The notes beneath the pieces were generated by a model. That model saw nothing but the letters and a program-made list of their open reading frames with translations, made no database searches and was not told where the DNA came from. A stretch of DNA of 64,000 bases. It comes from a virus (taxonomy: Duplodnaviria > Heunggongvirae > Uroviricota > Caudoviricetes). Positions 22,200 through 63,962 of this stretch are shown piece by piece. Each line of letters begins with the position of its first letter. The stretch's first letter is position 1. The position numbers and the translations under genes are program-made. The stretch lies in IMG/VR virus record IMGVR_UViG_2851938318_000001; one strand, written 5' to 3'.

Positions 22200-22721
22200 A
22201 TGGTTAAAGACATCACCTACGGCATACCGGCTGAAGTCTGGCCGCGAGACTACGAACATGCTGAAAACATACTTATGTTCTGGCGGAAGAACAACATTCC
22301 TGTAAGAGTCACGCTTGAAGACGGTCAGGTGTTTTGCATGTACGTTCAGGGGACAATGCCTTCCCGCAATAAGCTAGATTTATGCCCGCTTCCATATGAT
22401 AAAGAAAATCGTATAAGACTCCCACTTGAGCGCATTAGCACAATTGAATCAGGTGTAATCGATGGCATTGCTCGCGAGTTCAAAGGTAGGCTAACAATAC
22501 ATCCAGACTATGTTGACAATCAGCCATCACGCCGTGACTTTTTTGCGATATGTCGCAAGGCTTATCAAAACGACCAATCTATAAGGGTCTACATGGCAGA
22601 CGGTCGTGAAATAGAAGGGGTGTCAAGAGGCGTTGATGCTTGCCAGGTCACTCTTAAGTTAGAAGACGGCAGAAAAATACTTGTTTTCTTCGATTGGGTT
22701 GAACGAATCCTTCCTTTTTAA
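22200..22721 (+). CDS. hypothetical protein
   Basis: 173 aa ORF followed by hairpin terminator at 22725-22760. Confidence 0.45.
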   Translation: MVKDITYGIPAEVWPRDYEHAENILMFWRKNNIPVRVTLEDGQVFCMYVQGTMPSRNKLDLCPLPYDKENRIRLPLERISTIESGVIDGIAREFKGRLTIHPDYVDNQPSRRDFFAICRKAYQNDQSIRVYMADGREIEGVSRGVDACQVTLKLEDGRKILVFFDWVERILPF

Positions 22722-23007: not shown

Positions 23008-23667
23008 ATGTCCATCATGGCTAACATTATCATTTCTAAAAAATCCATCATTGAAGCTGCTTCCATTGTATCCGATGAACTGCGCGAAAAAGCAGATCTG
23101 GCAACTCAAACATATAACGAACATTATAAAAATGGTACGCACACTAAAGCAGACAAAGCAAATATGCAAGCTGCGACCACTAAACTTGCTTACTTCATCA
23201 ACAACGTTGTAAACGCTGTTGAAGACGAAAAATTATGCTCTGTTTTCTACTATGCAATTAAAGCAAGCAAACAAGCGCCAGAAGTATTTTTCCGTGATGC
23301 AATGACTAATAGTTATTCACTGGAAAAACTGGTTTATCTGGTTAAATCCATTAAAGCTGGTAAATGTGTTTATTCCGTCGCTGATATGTCAGGATCTCGT
23401 GTATTCGCTTTAATCGATATGATTAACGACGAGATCGACACGTTCACCAATGGCGCTGTTTTCGATTTAATGAATGAAGCTAAAAAAGCGTGTGAAATTA
23501 AATTGGACGCTGGATATACTCAAGCCAACCAGTTGATCAATCTTTGCGAACGTCTCGGACTTGTTGAAAAAGTCAAAGGAGCTGGGAGCGCCAAAGCTGG
23601 TACGCAGCAATATCGCTTCATTAAAAATGATTTCTACAATTATTTAGCTGATGCTTTCAAAGCGTAA
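23008..23667 (+). CDS. hypothetical protein
   Basis: 219 aa AT-rich ORF with RBS taaggatg; terminator hairpin 23678-23700. Confidence 0.45.
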   Translation: MSIMANIIISKKSIIEAASIVSDELREKADLATQTYNEHYKNGTHTKADKANMQAATTKLAYFINNVVNAVEDEKLCSVFYYAIKASKQAPEVFFRDAMTNSYSLEKLVYLVKSIKAGKCVYSVADMSGSRVFALIDMINDEIDTFTNGAVFDLMNEAKKACEIKLDAGYTQANQLINLCERLGLVEKVKGAGSAKAGTQQYRFIKNDFYNYLADAFKA

Positions 23668-24168: not shown

Positions 24169-24176
24169 AAACAATA

Positions 24177-24201
24177 GCGCCCACTATGGGCGCTTTTTTT
24201 C
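24177..24201 (+). terminator. rho-independent terminator
   Basis: agcgcccactatgggcgct hairpin followed by T7 run. Confidence 0.7.
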
Positions 24202-24225
24202 GTTTCCAATACTCCCACCATAACG

Positions 24226-24250
24226 CGCCAATGATGGCGCGTTTTTTATT
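24226..24250 (+). terminator. rho-independent terminator
   Basis: cgcgccaatgatggcgcg hairpin followed by tttttt. Confidence 0.65.
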
Positions 24251-24619
24251 GTCTTTAACTCACTCCAACAACATAAAAATAAGCACCAAAATAACGCCAT
24301 AGACGCGCTTTTATATCCTTGCCAGTACATACCCATTACTTAACACATTAACGCGCTTAAAACGCGTTATAGCGCATAGTTAATCATTGGCTTTTAGTCT
24401 TGCTATGTAATCCGCGTTTAATTGTCGGCGCGGATCGGCATTTTGTGTTGTTCTGTATCCGCTCGCGTATTATGTGCGCGTGATTTTTCACATAATCACA
24501 CCACTTAATCACGTATGTGATTACGCTACGAAAGAAATCTGGATGTCTCAGGCGACGAAAGTCATCATAATTTTCCCCGCTCGCCTGTCCGACAACCGCT
24601 GGTTGGATTCCACCAGCTT

Positions 24620-24770
24620 CCCGATGTTTTTTCTACACAAAGGCGAATGCAGCCGTTTCCCGAAAAAATCCTGGCCGTTCCCCGTCGGCTCATGAATACG
24701 TTCCTCGCCGTTTCTGAAAATTTCCCTGCGGCAGCTGGTGGCTATAGAGAAAGGGCCGTTTCTGGCCCTC
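24620..24770. repeat. degenerate iteron-like array (CCGTTTCC / GCCGTTTCTG units)
   Basis: at least 4 units: cagccgtttcccgaaaa, ggccgttccccgtcgg, cgccgtttctgaaaa, ggccgtttctggcc. Confidence 0.55.
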
Positions 24771-24777
24771 TTCTCAG

Positions 24778-25260
24778 TTACACGCCATCAAGGATGTGGA
24801 TGCGGTTGCTTGCGTATACATTCAGCATAAAGTTAGCGCAAAACAGTTTCCATGTGTCAACGCCAGCGGTATACGTAATATTTTTGCATTTAATTGCATT
24901 GTTGGCGATCCGCATCCCCTGCGATACTGCTTCATCGTCGGAAAATTTGAACGACGATTGAGTTTTAATCCAGACAGAAATCTGCGTAGCGAACTCAATC
25001 AGCTTGGACTGGCAGAATCGCCCGGAGCGCACCGGAAAGACGAACGTTCCGAATCCAGAATTTACCACATACGCTTTCTCAAATACCCGCGAGTAACGAC
25101 GATTACCAATGATGTCACGTGCAATAATGCATTTTTCTTGTGCTGACAGTTCTACCGTCTCATTGTCGCGCCATGCACCAAGTACTCGTTTTTCAATGTC
25201 AGAGAACGTTACAGCGATATTGCCATGTGCGGGTGCGTTTACAGTAGCGATAAAATTCAT
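24778..25260 (-). CDS. hypothetical early protein
   Basis: 160 aa ORF preceded by conserved promoter/operator unit. Confidence 0.5.
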   Translation of the reverse strand: MNFIATVNAPAHGNIAVTFSDIEKRVLGAWRDNETVELSAQEKCIIARDIIGNRRYSRVFEKAYVVNSGFGTFVFPVRSGRFCQSKLIEFATQISVWIKTQSSFKFSDDEAVSQGMRIANNAIKCKNITYTAGVDTWKLFCANFMLNVYASNRIHILDGV

Positions 25261-25277
25261 GATTAATTCCTTATCGT

Positions 25278-25314
25278 AAATAACAAATTGTTTTCTTGTT
25301 GTTGTTAATTATCG
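25278..25314 (-). promoter_or_regulatory. conserved early promoter/operator unit
   Basis: plus-strand aaataacaaattgttttcttgttgttgttaattatcg (rc: CGATAAT...AAGAAAACAAtTTGTT). Confidence 0.55.
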
Positions 25315-25433
25315 CTGTACGAATAAGGCGTCAAAGTTGAAAACTACGGTAGCCGGACGGGAACAGGTGGGTTTGTCGGTTGCCTGGAGGTAAGAGGTTG
25401 GTGTTTTTAGCCTGCGGGAAACAAGATGGTCAT

Positions 25434-25460
25434 TTAAGGCCACCAGCATTGGTGGCCTTA
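25434..25460 (-). terminator. rho-independent terminator
   Basis: aaggccaccagcattggtggcctt. Confidence 0.55.
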
Positions 25461-25464
25461 TTCT

Positions 25465-25752
25465 TTAGTGGAGTAGAGCGATGTCGATGGTATCCCCTGA
25501 ATCATCCACACGGATCATCAGCATGGCGAAGGCGTTTAGTGGATAACTGGCGTGCCATTCAGGGAAGCGGTCATCTCGCATGAAGTCAGCAATGTCGTAA
25601 ACGCAGCCCTCAAAGTGGAAGAATCGCGTGCTTACCTGCTCGTCATAATCCACATGATCCATTTCTTGCTGTTCTGTTTCCGGCAAGTCCAGCCATGATT
25701 CGAGGAATACATTTTGTGCTTTGGTGGTAATGGTGAAATCAGTCATGAGCAT
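25465..25752 (-). CDS. hypothetical early protein
   Basis: 95 aa ORF with conserved promoter unit upstream and hairpin terminator downstream. Confidence 0.5.
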   Translation of the reverse strand: MLMTDFTITTKAQNVFLESWLDLPETEQQEMDHVDYDEQVSTRFFHFEGCVYDIADFMRDDRFPEWHASYPLNAFAMLMIRVDDSGDTIDIALLH

Positions 25753-25765
25753 ATCCTAACTGCGT

Positions 25766-25798
25766 AAACATGTTGTTTTCTTGTTGGTGTAATTATCG
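25766..25798 (-). promoter_or_regulatory. conserved early promoter/operator unit
   Basis: aaacatgttgttttcttgttggtgtaattatcg. Confidence 0.55.
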
Positions 25799-25905
25799 CA
25801 GTGTAGATAAGGCATAAAAGAAGTTAATACAGGCTGAATACGCAAGAAAGGTTCTGGAAGTTGATAGCTAGGTTTCAAACTAACCTTCGGTTATTAAAAG
25901 TCATT

Positions 25906-25935
25906 TAAGGCCACCAGCGTTAACTGGTGGCCTAT
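25906..25935 (-). terminator. rho-independent terminator
   Basis: aaggccaccagcgttaactggtggcct. Confidence 0.55.
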
Positions 25936-25938
25936 ATC

Positions 25939-26238
25939 TCATTGCTTTCGATGTGCTGCAACGAACTCTTTCAACGTTTCTAGCGCATGATAAAGACCGA
26001 CGATATTTGAGCCGTAGTCGATGCAAACAGGGGAAAGTGATGTCTTCCCGTCGTGCGATGAATATGCCGATGTGGTAGTTGCAGGGTAATCGTGGCGATA
26101 GCAAACCGCAGTTTTTGGGTGTCGCAGATACGCTATCCCTCTTTCAAGATCATAAATTGCGCGTCGCAGGTCATGCTCCTGCGCTCTGGTCAATTTTGCC
26201 ATCGTAATACTCTCACTTAATGCGGCAAAGCCAGCCAT
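25939..26238 (-). CDS. hypothetical early protein (true start probably near 26202)
   Basis: 99 aa ORF; its first codons lie inside a duplicated segment. Confidence 0.4.
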   Translation of the reverse strand: MAGFAALSESITMAKLTRAQEHDLRRAIYDLERGIAYLRHPKTAVCYRHDYPATTTSAYSSHDGKTSLSPVCIDYGSNIVGLYHALETLKEFVAAHRKQ

Positions 26239-26477
26239 GATTCGAGGAATACATTTTGTGCTTTTGGGGTAATGGTGAAATCAGTCATCGTGCCCCCCAT
26301 CTCCTGCAACTGTGCAACGGTGATATCTGGACACAGCCCGTCGATCCACACCCACACGTCAATGATGCTGTCACCGGCTTCAAAATGGTGAAATGCGCGC
26401 TCAAGCTGCTGATTGTTATCCACAGGCTCATTTGCTAGCTGCGCCCAGATTTGCTGGACTTGAGTAATAGTTTTCAT
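26217..26477 (-). CDS. hypothetical early protein with C-terminus derived from a duplicated segment
   Basis: C-terminal MTDFTITPKAQNVFLESWLALPH duplicates the N-terminus of the 25465..25752 product. Confidence 0.45.
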   Translation of the reverse strand: MKTITQVQQIWAQLANEPVDNNQQLERAFHHFEAGDSIIDVWVWIDGLCPDITVAQLQEMGGTMTDFTITPKAQNVFLESWLALPH

Positions 26478-26486
26478 CTGCTTTCC

Positions 26487-26513
26487 TCTTGTTTTCTTGT
26501 TGTTGTAATTATC
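26487..26513 (-). promoter_or_regulatory. conserved early promoter/operator unit (left palindrome arm degenerate)
   Basis: cttgttttcttgttgttgtaattatcg. Confidence 0.5.
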
Positions 26514-26556
26514 GAAGTTTAGATAAGGCAGAAAATAAATTGTTATCGGGCATAAG

Positions 26557-26583
26557 AAAATGGCGCGGTTTACGCGCCATTCA
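26557..26583 (-). terminator. rho-independent terminator
   Basis: aaaa-tggcgcggtttacgcgcca. Confidence 0.6.
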
Positions 26584-26590
26584 AAGAGGA

Positions 26591-26986
26591 TTAAGCGAAT
26601 ACGCTTTCAGGGATTAAGGTGTCGGCAGGAATGCCAGAGGTAATGCGCAGGCCGTACTGACCAATCCAGGTGGTGCTGGTGTTCAGGCTGGAGGTGAATA
26701 CGGAATTAACCATACTCATCATGGTTTCAAACACCTCTTCATCAACCTGGCGGAAGTAGTTCTCGATTTTCAGCAGCAGTGGGTCAGTTGCATCGAGAAT
26801 GGACTGGTATTGAGTCGCGTACTCGCCGCCGGAGGCATCACCTTTACGCACGATCGTACTGGCCTGGACTTCGGCACCAGTTTCGGTGTTGTACGTAACA
26901 ACGGTGATTTTTGCCACATTCTTACCTTCGGCAGTTTCAGAGGCATAGTAAACATCAACTGTCAGTTTTTCGCGTTTAACGGTCAT
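26591..26986 (-). CDS. hypothetical early protein
   Basis: 131 aa ORF; terminator hairpin 26557-26583 downstream. Confidence 0.5.
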   Translation of the reverse strand: MTVKREKLTVDVYYASETAEGKNVAKITVVTYNTETGAEVQASTIVRKGDASGGEYATQYQSILDATDPLLLKIENYFRQVDEEVFETMMSMVNSVFTSSLNTSTTWIGQYGLRITSGIPADTLIPESVFA

Positions 26987-27112
26987 TTCACTCTCCGTAG
27001 TGTATTGGTTATTTTTCTATTTTATAGTCGTAGGTATGTACTTACAATACAAAAAAGCCCCGTAAGGATGGCGGGGCTGTCGTACTGTCGACTAATTACC
27101 ACTTGCACATTA

Positions 27113-27454
27113 TCAGGCTATTGCCATCACTGATGCTCTCTGAATTTCTTGCTGGGCCACGCGGTTAACTTCCATCAAAGCCAGTTCGAGCTGATGTTCC
27201 GGCCACATTCTTTGAAATGCCACCCAGCCTTTTCCACGCTGGCGGCGAACATTCATTACATAACGAGTAAAGGTGTTTTTATCGAAAGACACCGCGGTTT
27301 CACGGAACAGACGAATAGAGGTTCCATTGGCAACGATGTCCAGCAAAGTTAATTGAGCAACCAGTGCAGGCTTCTCTTTTCTCTTCTGGTCTTTGTCCAG
27401 ACCAAGAACCAATGATTTTTTCATCACAACTCCGTAAACAACTTGTTTTCTCAA
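27113..27454 (-). CDS. hypothetical early protein (likely start 27424, MKKSLVLG...)
   Basis: ORF-track start lies inside the promoter unit; internal Met has RBS. Confidence 0.45.
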   Translation of the reverse strand: MRKQVVYGVVMKKSLVLGLDKDQKRKEKPALVAQLTLLDIVANGTSIRLFRETAVSFDKNTFTRYVMNVRRQRGKGWVAFQRMWPEHQLELALMEVNRVAQQEIQRASVMAIA

Positions 27455-27469
27455 TGGCGTAAATAATAC
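27435..27469 (-). promoter_or_regulatory. conserved early promoter/operator unit
   Basis: aaacaacttgttttctcaatggcgtaaataatacc. Confidence 0.5.
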
Positions 27470-27577
27470 CAGTAAGAAAACGGCTACAAAGCATATTGAT
27501 CAGGTGCATGAGCGATATGCAGGTTCTTCCCTGCGGCTACAGATTAAGTTAAGCCAGCAATGCTGGCTTAGATTGGT

Positions 27578-27928
27578 TTACGCGAATACCTCAAGAAACT
27601 CCTGAACGTCCCAATGCTGGACGAGGTGAAGATAGACCTTAGAAATCACGTCATTCTCGCTATCGCATGTGAAGTAGTACTTCTGGCTGCGGTTGTATGT
27701 GTCCACACAAAATTCGCTCATATCCATAAAGTCAGCATCTTCACCCAGGTCGCAAATCATCAAAGCAGGTGCGTCATCACGAGTCATCAGCTCAAGCACC
27801 CACCGCGAATTGATCAGAGTGGAAGACCAACCTTCTAACTCATAAAACTGATCAAACTCTTTTTGAGTTAATTTCTTGATTTGGTTGATGTCGATATGTG
27901 CAAACATAAAGCAATCCTTAAACAACAT
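27578..27928 (-). CDS. hypothetical early protein
   Basis: 116 aa acidic ORF directly downstream of promoter unit. Confidence 0.5.
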   Translation of the reverse strand: MLFKDCFMFAHIDINQIKKLTQKEFDQFYELEGWSSTLINSRWVLELMTRDDAPALMICDLGEDADFMDMSEFCVDTYNRSQKYYFTCDSENDVISKVYLHLVQHWDVQEFLEVFA

Positions 27929-27952
27929 GTTTTCTTGTTGGTGTTATTATCG
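27920..27952 (-). promoter_or_regulatory. conserved early promoter/operator unit
   Basis: aaacaacatgttttcttgttggtgttattatcg. Confidence 0.55.
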
Positions 27953-28279
27953 TAATAACGCACAGGCGAAAAAGGATTTTATTCCGGTGAATGTGGTTTT
28001 GGCAGTGAGTTTTCAGGTTCAGTACCGAGTACACTTTTTACATTATTCTGATTTAGTGGCCGAAGGTGGCTGGTGGACAGAATAATCCTCTCCCCGAAAA
28101 CCTACTGAAATCGATTGTGACCCGCTGACTGTCTGGCACAATTACGCTGTAGCTGGGCATTCAGAGGGAATCCAGCGGTAAGCAAGTCCGCCTGCACGTG
28201 AGCGCCTCTCTTCTTCCCGCACATTGCAGGTGGGTAGCCGCAACTCTCCCTCTCGCTATACCGGTACGCCGCCGTTCCT

Positions 28280-28410
28280 GAACCGGCATTGAGCCTTTTC
28301 CCGAAATCCACACAGGCAACTCGACCGTTTCCCTGAAAACCTCCAGCCGTTCCCAAAGGCAACCCAGCCGTTTCTGTAGCGGGATGCAGCCTTTCCCCTG
28401 TATGGACCGA
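28280..28410. repeat. degenerate iteron-like array (CCGTTTCC units), second copy
   Basis: about 6 units: cgccgttcctgaacc, agccttttcccgaaa, cgaccgtttccctgaaaa, cagccgttcccaaagg, cagccgtttctgtagc, cagcctttcccctgta. Confidence 0.55.
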
Positions 28411-28559
28411 AGGCTGACCGTAGGGGTGTTACGGGGGATAAAATCAGGAGTTGAATAAATACGAAAAAGGAGGCGACCCCCCTCCTTCCCTCCCCACTTA
28501 TACATACCTGGCTTCTTCGCTATACATGTTGTGTTTTCTTCGTGTTTTATCTGTCTCAA

Positions 28560-29280
28560 CCTCTCTATAGGCGTTAATGCTCACACCTTCCAGAACGTTC
28601 TATACGGCGACTAATTCTGTTGGTGAATTGGGTGTGTTGTTCTCTCTGTCGGTGTAAATGGTTTCGTTAGTTTTGCGGTGGTTCTTCTGTGGGATGTTCT
28701 CGTCGTTTTGGTGATTGTTCTTCTCCGTGTATGGAGTAAAGGCAGGTGGGCGATTCCTTTCGTTATTGTGTTTGAGTTGTTTGTCTGGAGTGTGTGAAGG
28801 GCTTTTGTAGTTATTCGTGTATTGGGTAATGGCGTTTCCCGTGATTGTTATGTTTCGTGTCTTTTGGGATTGAGAGAATCCTTGCGGTTACAGGCTTCGT
28901 TGGGGTTTCAGTGATTCTGGTGTTTCTTCGCTGTTTGGGTAATGGCGTGTCGTGGGTATCGCGCGTATGGAAGTTTCGAATTGCCTGTGAAAGTTAGGTT
29001 GGTTGTCCGGTAGCCTGCCATAAAGAGGTTGGTTGTTTTTGGAATGGCATATGTGTTATTTGGTTGTTTTGTTATACCTGAAAATAAGTTGTTTATATGG
29101 TTGTGTAACGCAACGGGAGCGATTTTGAGCGTGTGTTTTTGTTGGTAGTGTGTTTGGTCGTCTGTGGTGAAAATTGGACGCTGTGGCGCTGTCTGCTGCG
29201 TAGAATTACGGGTATAAGCAGTGATGTGTGAAAACGTCAATTTTTTAGACCAAATCGGGTGAAAGCGTTGATGTTTCGTT
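28560..29280. other. ORF-free region with extreme GT (plus) / CA (minus) strand skew
   Basis: about 0.7 kb almost devoid of C and A on the plus strand; only low-complexity ORFs; promoter unit at 29290-29326 points into it. Confidence 0.5.
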
Positions 29281-29289
29281 GATCTGTTA

Positions 29290-29326
29290 TTCAGTTGTTT
29301 TCTTATTGGTATAAACAACTATAACC
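29290..29326 (-). promoter_or_regulatory. conserved early promoter/operator unit (drives GT-skew region)
   Basis: ttcagttgttttcttattggtataaacaactataacc. Confidence 0.45.
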
Positions 29327-29437
29327 TATTGATATTTAAGGATGTGATTGCAGGTATAGAATGGGGGTAGTGGCGATCAACGGATTCTTATAGAAAAGAA
29401 TCAAATTGTGACCGCCATTATCAATGAGTTGCAACCG

Positions 29438-30007
29438 TTAGTTGTTCAGATAAACATTTGGAACACGGACGTAGAAGTTCCTGTCGCCGGTAAGTTCCAG
29501 AGTAATGTTAATGTCATTACCATTGTCTAGTGTAGCCGTTGCTCTATAGAACTTATCCGTCACCTTGTCCTCTATTGTCACCTTCATACATTTTGGTGCA
29601 GTCGAACCGTTATTCTCTTTCAGAATAGTTGTCACGAGAGGGCAGGCTGCTTCTTCAAGAGCAACCTCGTCCTTGTGTGGGATGCCGATGAAGATAACCC
29701 AAGCCAGCGACGCAACGATTATGATAAATGGCACTCTGCTGCCTTTTGTAATAGTCGCGCGCTTCCAGAGATAGACAGGCAGGAGGAATACCCCCCATAG
29801 AATTGAAGGTGGTTCACAGCCAGACTCCGATAGAGCCATTCTGTCAGCTACTAACAAACCGATGGTAGTTACACCCCCAATTATAATAGCGTAATTGGTA
29901 TACTCTTCCGGCGATACTCCAAAGAAGAAAGGCATGAACGCTAGAATCCACGCATAAATGTTATTCAGAGGTTTTGTTTGTTGGTTCTGGGTTTCCATCA
30001 CATCCAT
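29438..30007 (-). CDS. integral membrane protein
   Basis: 189 aa with about 4 hydrophobic helices (e.g. IYAWILAFMPFFFGV, IIIGGVTTIGLLVA). Confidence 0.5.
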   Translation of the reverse strand: MDVMETQNQQTKPLNNIYAWILAFMPFFFGVSPEEYTNYAIIIGGVTTIGLLVADRMALSESGCEPPSILWGVFLLPVYLWKRATITKGSRVPFIIIVASLAWVIFIGIPHKDEVALEEAACPLVTTILKENNGSTAPKCMKVTIEDKVTDKFYRATATLDNGNDINITLELTGDRNFYVRVPNVYLNN

Positions 30008-30160
30008 TCCATCACATAAAAATCGCGTTTATATATTATCAATTTTCTCACTTGTATAACCTAAATACGCATCCGTTTATCAATCCACCTTCCACAAACA
30101 TCAGCTTTAGCTATGAAAAATAACAATCTCAAAGTGAAAACCATTATCATAGGATAACGA

Positions 30161-30346
30161 TTAGATGAGATGGTCTAATTCATCATCTATCATTGCTTTA
30201 ACACTTGAGTCATTAACCCCGTATTGATTTATGAACCGTTTCAGCTCCGGTGAAAACTGAAGGTAGATATCGTGAGCGTTTTTCACTGTAGGTTCAACGC
30301 CACGCATTTCAAGCGCCTTTAGTAGATATGAGTCTTCTTTAAGCAT
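30161..30346 (-). CDS. hypothetical small protein
   Basis: 61 aa ORF co-directional with neighbours. Confidence 0.3.
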   Translation of the reverse strand: MLKEDSYLLKALEMRGVEPTVKNAHDIYLQFSPELKRFINQYGVNDSSVKAMIDDELDHLI

Positions 30347-30843: not shown

Positions 30844-32877
30844 TTACTTAACCTGGTGGCCAGGTTTAGCACCAGCATCCGGGCTTAACAGGAAGATATC
30901 TTTCCCGCCGGGGCCAGCAGCCATCACCATGCCTTCAGAGATACCGAAGCGCATTTTACGTGGTGCCAGGTTAGCCACCATAATGGTGTGACGACCAATC
31001 AGTGCCTGTGGATCTGGATAAGCGGAACGGATGCCTGAGAAGACATTACGCTTTTCACCACCGAGATCCAGCGTCAGGCGAAGCAGTTTGTCAGAACCTT
31101 CTACAAACTCTGCGTTTTCAATCAGCGCCACGCGCAGGTCAACTTTGGCGAAGTCGTCAAAGGTGATAGTTTCCTGAATCGGGTCGTCAGCCAGTGGGCC
31201 AGTTACCGGTGCGGCTGTGGCTTTCACTTCTTCTTTGGATGCTTCCACCAGTGCTTCAACCTGCTTCATATCGATGCGGTTATACAGTGCCTTGAACGGA
31301 TTCACTTTATGGCCCAGCAGCGGTTGCTGGATACCATCCCAGGTCAGTTCTGTATTCAGGAATGCTTCTGCACGTTCAGTCAGTTTCGGCAGTACCGGCT
31401 TCAGGTACGTCATCAGCACGCGGAACAGGTTAATGCCCATAGAGCAAATCGCCTGCAGATCGGCATCGCGTCCTTCCTGCTTCGCCACCACCCACGGAGC
31501 CTGTTCATCGACATAGCGGTTAGCCAGGTCAGCCAATGCCATGATTTCACGGATAGCTTTACCAAATTCGCGGCTTTCCCACGCTTCACCAATCACTTCA
31601 GCGGCATCAGTGAAGGTTTTGTACAACTGCGGGTCAGCCAATTCGCTTGCCAGCACGCCGTCAAAACGCTTGTTGATAAAGCCCGCATTACGAGAGGCCA
31701 GGTTAACCACTTTGTTCACGATATCGGCATTCACGCGCTGAACGAAATCCTCCAGGTTGAGATCGATATCATCAATGCGCGAAGAGAGTTTCGCAGTGTA
31801 GTAGTAACGCAGGCTGTCGGCGTCAAAATGATTCAGCCAGGTGCTGGCTTTAATAAAGGTGCCGCGAGACTTGGACATCTTCGCGCCGTTCACCGTCACA
31901 TAGCCGTGAACAAACAGGTTGGTCGGCTTGCGGAAGTTGCTGCCTTCCAGCATGGCAGGCCAGAACAGGCTGTGGAAGTAAACAATATCTTTACCGATGA
32001 AGTGGTACAGCTCGGCGGTGGAGTCTTTCTTCCAGTATTCATCGAAGCTGGAGGTGTCGCCGCGTTTGTCGCACAGATTCTTGAAGGAACCCATGTAGCC
32101 AATCGGCGCGTCCAGCCAGACGTAGAAATATTTGCCCGGTGCGTTCGGAATTTCAAAACCGAAGTACGGCGCATCGCGGGAGATATCCCACTGTTGCAGA
32201 CCAGATTCAAACCACTCCTGCATTTTGTTTGCCACCTGCTCCTGCAACGCACCGCTGCGGGTCCATGCCTGCAACATTTCGCTGAAAGAAGGCAGATCAA
32301 AGAAGAAGTGTTCGGAATCACGCATTACCGGCGTAGCACCAGAAACTACCGATTTCGGCTCGATCAGTTCAGTAGGGCTGTATGTCGCGCCGCAGACTTC
32401 ACAGTTATCGCCGTATTGATCCGGCGCTTTACATTTCGGGCATGTGCCTTTCACAAAACGGTCCGGCAGGAACATGCCTTTTTCCGGGTCGTACAGCTGA
32501 GAGATGGTGCGGTTTTTAATAAAACCGTTCTCTTTCAGGCGAGTATAGATAAGCTCGGACAACTGACGGTTCTCTTCGCTGTGCGTCGAGTGATAGTTGT
32601 CATAGCTGATGTTAAAGCCTGCAAAATCAGTCTGGTGTTCCTGACTCATTTCGCCAATCATCTGTTCCGGTGTGATACCAAGCTGCTGTGCTTTCAGCAT
32701 GATCGGTGTGCCGTGGGCATCGTCGGCACAGATGAAATTAACCTCGTGGCCGCGCATTCGCTGGTAACGAACCCAGACATCAGCCTGGATGTGCTCCAGC
32801 ATATGGCCGAGGTGGATTGAGCCGTTAGCGTACGGCAGCGCGCACGTCACCAGAATTTTCTTCGCGACTTGGGTCAT
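30844..32877 (-). CDS. metG: methionyl-tRNA synthetase (E. coli chromosomal type)
   Basis: protein from [31 protein letters not shown]... with KMSKS motif, recognised as E. coli MetRS; ORF-track start 33006 is upstream extension. Confidence 0.95.
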
Positions 32878-33034
32878 AGTAGGCATTACTTCTTTGTAGT
32901 GAAAAGGGGCTTGATAGTAACAAAATGGCCTTATGTCTGCCATGTGATAACAGCATTTCTCATAAATGATTAAATGCCGTAGCTGGAGTACACTACAAGG
33001 CGACAATTGCGCAAATTAAAATAAAGGAGACGGG

Positions 33035-34135
33035 ATGAGCGAGTCCAAATCGCCGGATGCCCTGAGAGCAATGGTAGCCGGTACGCTGGCTAATTTTCAG
33101 CACCCAACCCTGAAACACAATCTGACTACGCTTAAAGCGTTACACCATGTTGCGTTGATGGATGACACACTGCATGTCGAACTAATCATGCCTTTCGTGT
33201 GGAATAAGCCTTTTGAAGACCTGAAAGAGCAATGTAGTGGTGATCTGCTCCGTATCACTGGCGCAAAGGCTATTGACTGGAAGCTGTCGTACAACATTGC
33301 CACGCTTAAGCGCGTCAAAAACCAACCAGGCATTAATGGCGTGAAGAACATTATCGCCGTCAGCTCAGGCAAGGGCGGCGTTGGTAAATCCTCCACGGCG
33401 GTAAACCTGGCACTGGCGTTGGCTGCTGAAGGTGCGAAAGTTGGTATTTTGGATGCCGATATCTACGGGCCATCAATTCCAACCATGCTTGGCGCGGAAA
33501 ACCAACGTCCAACCTCACCGGACGGTACTCACATGGCACCGATTATGTCTCATGGACTGGCAACCAATTCAATTGGTTATCTGGTAACTGACGACAATGC
33601 GATGGTGTGGCGTGGTCCGATGGCGAGCAAGGCGTTAATGCAGATGTTGCAGGAAACTCTATGGCCTGATCTGGACTATCTCGTTCTCGATATGCCGCCG
33701 GGTACTGGTGATATTCAGCTGACGCTGGCGCAGAACATTCCTGTAACTGGTGCTGTTGTGGTAACTACGCCGCAAGATATCGCGCTGATCGATGCGAAGA
33801 AAGGCATTGTGATGTTCGAAAAAGTCGAAGTGCCGGTACTGGGTATCGTCGAAAACATGAGTGTGCATATTTGCAGTAACTGCGGTCATCACGAGCCAAT
33901 TTTTGGCACCGGTGGCGCACAGAAGCTGGCCGAGAAATACAACACGCAGTTGTTAGGCCAAATGCCACTTCATATCTCTCTTCGTGAAGATCTGGATAAC
34001 GGAACACCAACCGTTATTAGTCGTCCAGATAGCGAATTTACGGCTATTTATCGTGACCTCGCAGATCGCGTTGCTGCCCAAATGTATTGGCAAGGTGAAG
34101 TAATACCTGGCGAAATCGCATTCCGCGCAGTGTGA
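33035..34135 (+). CDS. apbC: Fe-S cluster carrier ATPase ApbC/Mrp (E. coli chromosomal type)
   Basis: P-loop AVSSGKGGVGKSS and CxxC (CSNCGH); divergent from metG as in the E. coli chromosome. Confidence 0.93.
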   Translation: MSESKSPDALRAMVAGTLANFQHPTLKHNLTTLKALHHVALMDDTLHVELIMPFVWNKPFEDLKEQCSGDLLRITGAKAIDWKLSYNIATLKRVKNQPGINGVKNIIAVSSGKGGVGKSSTAVNLALALAAEGAKVGILDADIYGPSIPTMLGAENQRPTSPDGTHMAPIMSHGLATNSIGYLVTDDNAMVWRGPMASKALMQMLQETLWPDLDYLVLDMPPGTGDIQLTLAQNIPVTGAVVVTTPQDIALIDAKKGIVMFEKVEVPVLGIVENMSVHICSNCGHHEPIFGTGGAQKLAEKYNTQLLGQMPLHISLREDLDNGTPTVISRPDSEFTAIYRDLADRVAAQMYWQGEVIPGEIAFRAV

Positions 34136-34598: not shown

Positions 34599-34897
34599 TA
34601 TGTTGAAGCTATATATTTTTGAACTCTATCTCTTAAAAAAGATGTTAATAAGATGCTAACTATTGAAAGGCATAAATATATACAATTCCAACAAACGTTA
34701 TTTTTAACAAATTTTTTCTCTCTGTTGACTTTTGCGAAAGCCTTGTCTGGCCTAAATTGCGCGGAAGCTACTTTTTCCTTCCTGAGTTATCCACAGAGTT
34801 ATGCACTTGCATGCATAACCTATACACACTATCTTAATTCGCAAGACACTGATGTTGCGGTATTGAAGGTTCATTGGGTTAAAAATAGACATTAAAA

Positions 34898-48625: not shown

Positions 48626-49516
48626 TCAGGCTGCCAGATCATCGTTTCCGATGGAAGCATAATAAGCTTTTTCTGCTTCTGCCGGAGGAGTATGGCCCAG
48701 CCTTCCCAGCAATCGTCGATTGTTATACCAGTCCACCCACGTTAGTGTGGCCAGTTCCACTTCTGCACGGTTTTTCCAGCTCTTACGGTGTATTACCTCC
48801 GCTTTGTAAAGACCATTGATGCTCTCAGCCATCGCGTTGTCATACGAGTCGCCTGTACTCCCTGTTGATGCCAGTAATCCGGCTTCTTTTAGTCGCTCCG
48901 TATAGGCCAGTGACACATACTGAGAGCCTTTATCGCTGTGATGGATGGTGCCAGACGGACGACGGGCCCACAACGCCTGCTCCAGCGCATCCAGCACGAA
49001 TGTCGTTTCCATAGACGATGAGACCCGCCACCCCACGATGTATCCGGCAAACACATCAATGATAAACGCCACATAGACGAAGCCCTGCCATGTGCTGACG
49101 TAAGTAAAATCAGCCACCCACAGCTGGTCAGGTCGTTCTGCCACGAACTGACGGTTTACGCGGTCGCCTGCGGCAACGGCTTTCCGGCTGATGGTCGTAC
49201 GGACCTTTTTACCCCGGAGAACACCGGCAAGTCCCATAACCGCCATGAGACGTGCCACTGTACATCTGGCCACCCTGATTCCTTCCCGTAACAACTGACG
49301 CCAGACTTTACGCACACCGTACACCTGATGATTTTCATCGTATACGCGCTGTATCTCTCTCTTCAGCCAGTCGTCGTGCTGCGCACGGGCACTGCGTTTA
49401 TCCGGATGATGTCGCTGTTGCTGACAATGGTAATACGTTGACGGGGCAATATGCAGTTCGCTGCATACCGGTCCGACCCCGTACTGCTCACGCAGCTTAT
49501 CCAGCAGTGGCATCAT
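48626..49516 (-). CDS. IS629-type transposase OrfB (DDE)
   Basis: overlaps orfA in -1 frame; DDE integrase-like sequence. Confidence 0.85.
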
Positions 49517-49839
49517 TTTTTCCAGAGGCGGTCGAACTCCGCCTTCGCAAAATAAGCGGAAGCCTGGCGAAGGATATCGTTACTGCGGCGCAGTTCACGA
49601 TTTTCACGTTCCAGCTCTTTCAGACGCTGACGTTCAGCGCTGGTGAGCCCACCATCACCGCCCCCGGTATCCCGCTCATGCTGGCGAACCCAGACACGCA
49701 GAGTCTCCGGCGTACAGCCAATCTTTGGGGCAATGGAACAAATTGCCGCCCACTGTGAGTCATATTCATCCTGACTTTCCAGAACCATACGAATCGCCCG
49801 CTGACGGACTTCGGGGGAAAAACGAGTATTTTTAGTCAT
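49513..49839 (-). CDS. IS629-type transposase OrfA
   Basis: [31 protein letters not shown]... recognised as IS629/IS3411 OrfA. Confidence 0.9.
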
Positions 49840-63257: not shown

Positions 63258-63344
63258 AATCGTTTTTTCAGTAGTTATTGGCCGATGCTACGATAACTCA
63301 TTAGGCATACCTTAATCTGCATTTGCCTGTTTTACTTATCCCAG

Positions 63345-63420
63345 TTATCCACTGGATAGATCCAAATAAGAGATCCCAAGTAAGATCAAATAGAAGATCC
63401 AAAGAGATCCCCGATCGCCT
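63345..63420. repeat. DnaA-box-like site plus phased AAGAGATCC-type repeats (about 11 bp period)
   Basis: ttatccact at 63345; taagagatccc / aagtaagatc / aatagaagatcc / aaagagatcccc. Confidence 0.5.
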
Positions 63421-63454
63421 CTAGCCGTTGCGGTTACTGGTCTGAAAGGGTGTT

Positions 63455-63565
63455 GCCATCCACTATGGAGAGCAAAGAAACCTCTGTAGAGAGCTGAATA
63501 ACCGCTATGAAGAGTAAAACAACCACTCTGGAGAGCTGTATATATCCACTGTAGAGAGTAGAGCA
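63455..63565. repeat. iteron array 1 (5 x about 21 bp, core AWCCRCTRTRGAGAG)
   Basis: atccactatggagagc, aacctctgtagagagc, aaccgctatgaagagt, aaccactctggagagc, atccactgtagagagt. Confidence 0.75.
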
Positions 63566-63730
63566 CATTGTCTTTTATGGATAACTTAATGACTTAATTC
63601 TTCATTAACATACTGATATACATAGATATATTTTAAACTCTACTCTTAGTCATGATTCTTATGTCCTTAAATATCCACAGAAGAGTAGAGTTACCTGTTC
63701 TTGAAATCCTCTGATTTTTATCCACAGGCC
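63566..63730. promoter_or_regulatory. AT-rich spacer with DnaA boxes (origin-like)
   Basis: TTATCCACA at 63718-63726, ATATCCACA at 63673-63681, tatggataa at 63576; inverted agagtagag repeats. Confidence 0.55.
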
Positions 63731-63734
63731 CGAT

Positions 63735-63800
63735 CCAGTAATTCAGATCACAAAGAGAACCAAAGAGACCCATAAAGACCCAATAAGATCCCCGCCCACC
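63735..63800. repeat. second set of phased AAAGAGAMC repeats
   Basis: caaagagaacc / aaagagaccc / ataaagaccc / aataagatcccc. Confidence 0.5.
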
Positions 63801-63838
63801 TCAAACCGTTGTGCCATCTGCCTTCAGACATGATCGAT

Positions 63839-63962
63839 ATCCACTATAGAGAGCGAATAATCCACTATAGGGAGCAAAGCAACCACTATAGAGAGGAGAA
63901 AAACCACTATAGACGGTAGGATAACCGCTGTGATGAGTGCTACTATCCACTGTAATCAGCAA
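63839..63962. repeat. iteron array 2 (6 x about 21 bp)
   Basis: atccactatagagagc, atccactatagggagc, aaccactatagagagg, aaccactatagacggt, aaccgctgtgatgagt, atccactgtaatcagc. Confidence 0.75.

Follow-up and report, generated by a model that had tools for sequence, protein, structure and literature searches.

The 64,000-nucleotide stretch of viral DNA analysed here (IMG/VR record IMGVR_UViG_2851938318_000001, Caudoviricetes; hereafter referred to as the window) contains two arrays of short direct repeats, hereafter referred to as arrays A and B, on either side of a cluster of small genes. The window is part of an SSU5-like phage-plasmid, because the region around the arrays shares 93-97% identity with Escherichia phage Cyrano (pLF82, from E. 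coli LF82), CMS-2020a and PhiR41_1, and 67-78% with Klebsiella phage-plasmids and Salmonella phage SSU5. It is collinear with Cyrano in the reverse orientation, with window position w corresponding roughly to Cyrano position 123727 - w. Judging from the sequence features described below, the arrays very probably act as DNA, rather than as RNA or protein, by providing helically phased sites for one sequence-specific protein. By analogy with known systems, we suggest, with a probability of about 0.3, that they constitute a bipartite iteron-type element for a second, lytic-phase replication, in which A would be the primary and B the auxiliary site, both bound by a 219-amino-acid (219-aa) protein of the element.

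Arrays of direct repeats with a conserved core

A sequence-only reading of the window had placed two repeat arrays, in the same orientation, at about the positions given in Table 1, and both were found on the plus strand. Their units, which that reading described as degenerate and about 20 bp long, are indeed degenerate, but are better defined as about 22 bp, with a conserved core and a poorly conserved spacer. The core GCCGTTTCC (plus the following C) and its one-mismatch variants are repeated at 22-bp spacing in both arrays, and an asymmetric core, (C)AGCCGTTTCCC, is common to the two. Successive cores are spaced by 22 and 33 bp in array A and by 22, 31, 22, 21 and 22 bp in array B. A fourth copy of the motif at array A (24755-24763), 48 bp after the third, corresponds to the loop of a hairpin, and this “unit” is better read as a terminator, because the stem of the hairpin displays a compensatory change in relatives (GGGGC...GCCCC). 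In 90 distinct units from relatives, which were picked by the matrix itself, the information is concentrated in 10-13 bp with the consensus C-y-r-GCCGTTTCCC, the remaining 10 bp or so being nearly free.

The 9-mer motif, with no more than one mismatch, has 25 matches in the window, versus 13.5 +/- 3.9 in shuffled sequences. A degenerate form, [GA]CC[GT]TT[TC]C[CT], has 18 matches, 10 of which fall inside the 272 nt covered by the arrays (Poisson P of about 1e-10 and 6e-16, for a motif defined after the fact). With a matrix trained on array A alone, three units of array B were the best matches outside A in 128 kb of strand; with a matrix trained on array B alone, the first unit of array A (A1) was the top match in the whole window. 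No further cluster of the motif was found in the window or in the scanned 99 of the 108 kb of Cyrano. In the tandem-repeat and motif analysis proposed in the sequence-only reading as a check, motif matrices recovered both arrays, but Tandem Repeats Finder reported neither, because only half of each unit is conserved.

Comparison with related phages, also proposed there, revealed that the arrays are conserved in SSU5-like elements. Both were present, in the same orientation, at 24 loci of the relatives examined, with hosts belonging to Escherichia, Klebsiella, Salmonella, Enterobacter and Cronobacter, and were separated by 1.5-4.2 kb, except in one derivative with an IS100 inserted between them. 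Yersinia pMT1 has kept array A and lacks array B, and an IS1541 adjoins its truncated gene cluster. Likewise, array A was found in 766 plasmids of PLSDB, 55 of them from Yersinia (pMT1), and array B in 713, none of which was from Yersinia. The geometry of array A (22 and 33-34 bp) is retained in most relatives, only two units scoring in several Klebsiella elements, and this array forms a local conservation peak, with a column identity of 0.89-0.95, versus 0.58-0.70 in the flank. Array B has two to six units in relatives, differing by insertions or deletions of whole units (PhiR41_1 lacks one 22-bp unit, for example). One contig has an array B opening with a near-copy of its own A1-A2 units, which suggests that the arrays exchange sequence and that their units are equivalent. 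Across relatives, 67 of 126 non-redundant spacings are of 22 bp, with six of 21 or 23 bp, 32 of 31-34 bp and seven of 44 bp. Units were recognized even in a Klebsiella lineage (L132) with neighbouring proteins just 31-51% identical (CAGCCGTTTCCCGAAA at A; CCCCGTTTCCC and GGCCGTTCCCC at B), and drifted versions (GGCGTTTTGAAA and GGGAAAACGTTCCCTTTCC, two copies of each) occupy the position of array A in an AT-rich distant relative (L134). A 52-kb derivative devoid of virion and replisome genes retains both arrays, an observation that is uninformative either way.

The arrays are not protein-coding. The open reading frames (ORFs) predicted across them had been suspected to be spurious, and this was borne out by frame breaks in relatives: ORF 28161-28559 (CYRAN_104 in Cyrano) is split into two frames even in Cyrano, at 96.7% identity, and in PhiR41_1, and ORF 28908-29318 is frame-split in SSU5 and other relatives, whereas control genes hold a single frame in the same comparison. 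Indels of 22 bp and 1 bp inside the arrays distinguish relatives, and mostly no gene is called over the arrays in the RefSeq annotation. The possibility that the repeats lie inside a demonstrable coding gene, envisaged in the same reading, can thus be set aside, as no reading frame over them is kept in relatives. At the RNA level, Rfam searches in gathering and E-value modes yielded no family, with chance-level matches on the terminators only, and consensus folding (alifold) of both arrays, on both strands and with diverse relatives, retained the terminator hairpin as the sole helix, with unfavourable covariance terms on both strands. No promoter-like site driving either array was found. In RNA-seq data for LF82 lysogens, the features over array B and the G+T-rich tract adjoining it were at or near floor (PMC9928086, supplementary table).

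The general idea that the arrays are sites for a DNA-binding protein is the part of the sequence-only reading that indirect evidence favours most, given the phasing, the conservation of the asymmetric core across the family, the turnover of units, the lack of a conserved ORF, RNA structure or Rfam family, and the low transcript level over array B. Each array may be viewed as a row of asymmetric recognition sites of 10-13 bp placed at two, sometimes three or four, helical turns. With sites at whole helical turns, copies of the protein would share one face of the helix and could therefore bind cooperatively.

Surroundings of the arrays and the intervening gene cluster

Predicted terminators delimit the short islands in which the two arrays are located. 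Around array A, the hairpins listed in Table 1 enclose an island of about 500 bp without a gene call. Chi sites (GCTGGTGG) are over-represented about sevenfold in the 64-kb window (15 sites, versus about two expected), and some of them flank the arrays. The tract adjoining array B contains 12-14% A and 9-14% C per 100 nt over most of its length, together with degenerate repeats about 90-113 bp apart (GTGTATGGAGTAATGGC) and the best-conserved non-genic stretch of the region (28696-28735). CYRAN_103 and CYRAN_104, which are annotated over this area in Cyrano, are frame-broken in relatives. A sigma-70-like promoter downstream of array A (24591-24564) is not conserved in relatives, and the idea of the array as an upstream activator site was dropped for this reason. 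About 130 bp to the left of array A, there is also a perfect palindrome (24506-24523; TAATCAC-GTAT-GTGATTA), with an extra copy of ATAATCAC just upstream; it looks like an operator, and is only partially conserved in relatives.

Table 1. Coordinates of the arrays and of associated features (window positions, unless otherwise indicated)
Feature	Coordinates	Strand	Remarks
Gene for the 219-aa protein, candidate binder	23008-23667	+	Predicted N-terminal helical bundle and C-terminal winged-helix-like domain
Two conserved terminator hairpins	24176-24243	First flagged on both strands	End plus-strand genes; column identity 0.92-0.94
Chi site	24610-24617	-	Flanks array A on its left; retained by three Klebsiella relatives
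Array A	24648-24728	+	Three phased units, cores 24652-24661, 24674-24683 and 24707-24716
Conserved block AATTTCCCTGCGGCAGCTGGTGG	24719-24741	+	Half-unit-like TTTCCCTGCGG, then Chi site (24734-24741); column identity 0.95
Terminator hairpin GGGCC-GTTTCT-GGCCC	24745-24773	-	Ends gene 24778-25260; loop holds the fourth motif copy
Variable cluster of seven small genes	24778-27928	-	Between arrays A and B
Chi site	28069-28076	+	Between array B and the first promoter module; kept in relatives, including L132
Isolated degenerate unit CCTCTCCCCGAAAACC	28087-28102	+	Kept in Escherichia and Klebsiella relatives
Array B	28268-28402	+	Six phased units, cores starting at 28271, 28293, 28324, 28346, 28367 and 28389
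Terminator-like hairpin	28463-28488	-	Directly upstream of array B in the minus sense; block conserved at 0.87-0.90
G+T-rich tract (plus strand)	28500-29437		About 0.9 kb, conserved, without a conserved ORF; adjoins array B; present in L132
P1-like plasmid origin (oriR)	63330-63950		Next to repA
Type Ib ParA (222 aa) and 119-aa partner	Cyrano (L130) 29307-30334		Outside the window, about 65 kb from the arrays

The arrays flank seven small ORFs, as the sequence-only reading had it; these are on the minus strand, and the gene content of this cluster differs between relatives. Six of the seven proteins match PHROG families of unknown function and none has a Pfam match; searches of Pfam, PHROGs and NCBIfam with the cluster and its neighbours gave no function for any of the seven. 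Five small minus-strand genes have a near-identical upstream module of 55-70 bp (25281-25336, 25765-25833, 26481-26549, 27436-27491 and 27919-27987), which reads ...CGATAATTACACCAACAAGAAAACAACATG on the minus strand and consists of a -10-like GATAAT, a conserved leader and ATG. The same promoter-like/leader module was found in L132; it is reminiscent of the promoter/stem-loop cassettes by which T4-type phages shuffle their small early genes. The description of the arrays as bracketing an early-gene cluster is nevertheless incomplete, because degenerate copies of the module are also found beyond array B (29082-29108 and 29288-29314). Two copies of the module are not followed by an ORF. Within the cluster, a 66-nt segment is present in two copies, 94% identical (25681-25746 and 26223-26288), each serving as the 5' end of a different small gene; this duplication points to mosaic N-termini generated by recombination within the cluster.

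Candidate binding proteins and function of the arrays

The protein most likely to bind the arrays would be the 219-aa protein of the element itself. Its gene is the only one that has remained beside array A in all the lineages compared, L134 and the 52-kb deletion derivative included, and the family is confined to SSU5-like elements. In the AlphaFold model (pLDDT 84), a helical bundle at the N-terminus is followed by a domain of about 90 residues at the C-terminus. Foldseek gave weak but consistent matches to ORC/Cdc6, MukE/F, RTP and PadR. In the putative recognition helix, T171, Q172 and Q175 do not vary, even at 31% identity. On this model, the protein is a candidate array binder, and its helical bundle would support dimers or tetramers able to bridge A and B. 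Its transcript is near floor in LF82 lysogens (PMC9928086, supplementary table). A second candidate is the 119-aa partner of a type Ib ParA encoded elsewhere in the element. It has a basic N-terminal tail and a ribbon-helix-helix-like core, as judged by eye, and matches nothing in Pfam or the PDB. This partner is 90-100% identical across genera and is absent from pMT1, as is array B. No repeat array was found next to the parA and partner genes of Cyrano, either upstream or downstream.

In the bipartite iteron interpretation, array A, with its near-invariant 22/33-bp geometry, would be the primary site, and array B, which gains and loses whole units, would be an auxiliary site reached through DNA looping. 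The pair would serve lytic-phase replication, separately from the P1-like, RepA-dependent oriR at 63.3-63.95 kb. That a protein binds the arrays, which protein this is, that the DNA loops and that the pair has a role in replication are all inferred from the 22-bp iteron geometry, the combination of a fixed and a plastic array, the large tract without a conserved ORF and the shielding by terminators, and from the precedents of P4 ori/crr and P1 incC/incA. Iterons are expected to be direct repeats spaced by about 17-22 bp, or some two helical turns, and the predominant 22-bp spacing and asymmetric core conform to this pattern. A bipartite arrangement of the P4 type would require one initiator to bind the same repeat at two loci kilobases apart; here, the two loci share a motif, and pMT1 persists with array A only.

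Several observations weigh against this interpretation. The second origin proposed in the sequence-only reading has iteron-like phasing in its favour, but the three classical companions of an origin, all present at oriR, are absent at the arrays: no DnaA box, even allowing one mismatch, lies closer than about 700 bp to either array; the arrays have an A+T content of 40-49%, without an AT-rich tract for unwinding; and GATC sites do not form a cluster, with none at 28-29 kb. At oriR, two sets of 21-bp iterons (CCACTATAGAGAGC, 63.46-63.95 kb) flank an AT-rich stretch, with DnaA boxes at 63345, 63576, 63671 and 63718, and with GATC-rich 12-bp repeats (AGATCCAAATAA) and 10-bp repeats (CAAAGAGACC). 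The genes for a DnaB-like helicase, a primase and Pol III alpha are 35-60 kb from the arrays. Unlike most rep genes, that of the 219-aa protein lies neither between nor directly beside the repeats, and little weight attaches to its adjacency to array A, given that the backbone is collinear throughout. Finally, the strict conservation of the core despite strongly diverged proteins could point to a host factor. GC skew across the window tracks gene orientation and carries no information on origins.

Nearly as likely is a looping insulator or regulator, in which a bridging protein, possibly the 219-aa protein, would loop out the hypervariable region of early-gene cassettes without any role in replication, thereby shutting the cluster off, co-regulating it or insulating it from neighbouring transcription. 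Long-range loops between operator sets are formed by lambda OL-OR and by the flanking sites of 186 CI. The near-identical promoter-like/leader modules of the flanked genes fit this model, as do the variable cargo between fixed flanks 1.5-4.2 kb apart, the position of the arrays against terminator-like hairpins at the edges of transcription units, and the predicted helical bundle, which suits oligomerisation. However, the arrays overlap no promoter module, the first unit of array B (B1) being about 280 bp from the nearest; degenerate modules at 29082 and 29288 lie outside the bracket; and direct repeats spaced by 22 bp are encountered more typically in iterons than in operators. The cluster is, moreover, just partly silent in lysogens in which the 219-aa candidate is barely expressed (PMC9928086, supplementary table). 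A related and unlikely proposal is that the arrays and the 219-aa family constitute an undescribed bipartite cis element that clamps and loops out early-gene cassettes and possibly doubles as a tract-primed lytic origin; literature searches retrieved no published description of these repeats. The strand bias of the 0.9-kb tract would then favour R-loops if it were transcribed rightward; the element encodes a UvsW-type helicase and an RNase H. It is doubtful, but somewhat easier to accept, that the arrays are a dispersed partition centromere, supplying the missing sites of the ParA/119-aa partner system. No repeat array adjoins those genes in Cyrano, the partner resembles, in its sequence, a ParG-type centromere-binding protein, its conservation across genera parallels the invariance of the DNA core, and pMT1 lacks both the partner and array B. 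Islands shielded from transcription would suit a centromere, and the centromeres of the phage-plasmid N15 are scattered among phage genes. By contrast, no copy of the motif lies ahead of parA, the usual site of autoregulation by type Ib partners, and none scoring at least 12 bits, beyond chance singles, in positions 1-50000 of Cyrano. Known ribbon-helix-helix centromeres have periods of 4-11 bp, unlike the 22-bp period and 12-bp asymmetric core observed here; the ribbon-helix-helix assignment itself was made by eye, without a Pfam or PDB match. The pMT1 correlation is a single evolutionary event, and that plasmid keeps array A intact without this par system.

The remaining explanations range from improbable to barely tenable. 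Recruitment of a conserved Enterobacterales host protein, such as a response regulator or nucleoid-associated factor, is improbable, even though the core is unchanged where all the neighbouring proteins of the element fall to 31-70% identity and all the hosts with an unchanged core are Enterobacterales. We know of no E. coli regulator with a consensus fitting GCCGTTTCCC, and the drift of the motif in L134 is what would be expected with a co-evolving, element-encoded binder. We consider an RNA-level function very improbable, whether as a repeat transcript sponging an RNA-binding protein or as an anti-termination or termination signal. Minus-strand units do contain GGGAAAC, loosely recalling GGA-type motifs, both arrays come after terminators in the direction of the genes, and the adjoining tract would yield a C-rich, G-poor RNA, the composition typical of a Rho loading site. 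Nevertheless, about a quarter of the units have a disrupted GGA triplet, spacings of 31-34 bp are more readily explained by helical phasing than by a tandem RNA unit, and the folding, Rfam and promoter searches described above were negative on both arrays; read counts over array B in lysogens are also low (PMC9928086, supplementary table). The packaging (pac) site suggested by the sequence-only reading is the least credible option and must be judged unlikely because the terminase genes, which map to about 13.7-15.2 kb in the window, are some 9.5-13 kb away from the arrays. The pac sites of P1 and SPP1 have phased repeats flanking the cut site, but two arrays 3.6 kb apart with variable cargo do not fit a single pac site.

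Other features of the window and comparison with known systems

Two genes near array B, labelled “MinD” and “MetRS”, were considered as partition or replication genes and rejected as a host-like mrp/apbC and metG pair. They encode a full-length methionyl-tRNA synthetase (30844-33006, minus strand) and a divergent Mrp/ApbC-type ATPase (33035-34135, plus strand). This is the arrangement of the host metG-mrp locus; the pair is therefore probably captured host DNA, and not the partition gene that the “MinD” label suggests. To the left of an S24-peptidase gene, a tandem 12-bp repeat (GAGTTATCCACA, about two copies; 34784-34806) contains a consensus DnaA box (TTATCCACA at 34787). The gene at 22200-22721 (plus strand) encodes a homologue of the phase-1 flagellin repressor FljA (Pfam Flag1_repress, E = 5e-81); it is moderately expressed in LF82 lysogens and is likely to be a lysogenic-conversion gene. 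Positions 49442-49558 (minus strand) match the ALIL pseudoknot over its full length (Rfam RF01497, 121.5 bits), a frameshift-type signal of IS3-family transposases; the match suggests that the window contains an insertion sequence.

Clinical Enterobacterales commonly harbour SSU5-like phage-plasmids: more than 700 plasmids in PLSDB contain the arrays or the neighbouring gene. Elements of this family bear cargo for resistance and virulence, and Yersinia pestis pMT1 and Salmonella Typhi pHCM2-type plasmids are among them. Our literature searches on SSU5-like elements retrieved no paper on a lytic origin, a centromere or early-gene control, and these two arrays, which are conserved but unannotated and adjoin a 0.9-kb tract lacking a conserved ORF, are obvious starting points in a search for such cis elements. 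The arrays also mark the borders of a region exchanging small early genes, providing useful landmarks for comparative work, and help to correct spurious gene calls, such as CYRAN_103 and CYRAN_104.

The arrays are iteron-like or centromere-like in kind and do not represent a new class, although as cis elements they are undescribed in the literature searched. A pattern scan of IMG/VR retrieved SSU5-like contigs, together with coding Gly/Asn repeats and lambdoid ori iterons. In unrelated lambdoid prophages (L013 4590-4790, for example), GCCGTTTCC recurs within an O-like replication gene, beside a DnaA box, mostly every 22-24 bp or so and with at most about 48 bp between units. Kinship with these iterons was rejected: unlike the units described here, theirs have dyad symmetry (GAGCCG...CGGCTC) and are contained in the initiator gene, and the O-like protein has no similarity to the 219-aa protein. 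We judge the recurrence of GCCGTTTCC to be coincidental.

Plasmid iterons, such as those bound by RepA, RepE, TrfA and pi, resemble the arrays in being direct repeats of about 22 bp, with an asymmetric core followed by a variable spacer and with a copy number that varies between relatives. The RepA iterons of the element itself are, however, located elsewhere and differ in sequence (CCACTATAGAGAGC), and the candidate binder is predicted to have one winged-helix-like domain behind a helical bundle, rather than the two-winged-helix fold of Rep proteins. The sopC-like sites of N15 and type Ib centromeres (parH, parC1/parC2 and pSM19035 parS) are likewise repeats located far from, or flanking, other genes, and the element has a partition system without an obvious adjacent site. 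The N15 sites are, nonetheless, single inverted repeats, and type Ib centromeres are usually beside or upstream of parA, whereas the arrays lie about 65 kb away, with no motif copy upstream of parA.

In the satellite phage-plasmid P4, the alpha protein recognizes one kind of octamer repeat (type I) both in ori and in crr, 4.5 kb apart, and further precedents are provided by P1 incC/incA and by R6K gamma with alpha/beta. The arrays differ from P4 ori/crr in having only a candidate initiator, no adjacent rep or primase gene, no AT-rich tract and no DnaA boxes, and in bracketing unrelated small genes rather than the initiator gene. They resemble these systems in that one short asymmetric repeat recurs in clusters at two loci a few kilobases apart, with one locus of fixed geometry and the other auxiliary, in an element with a phage-and-plasmid lifestyle.

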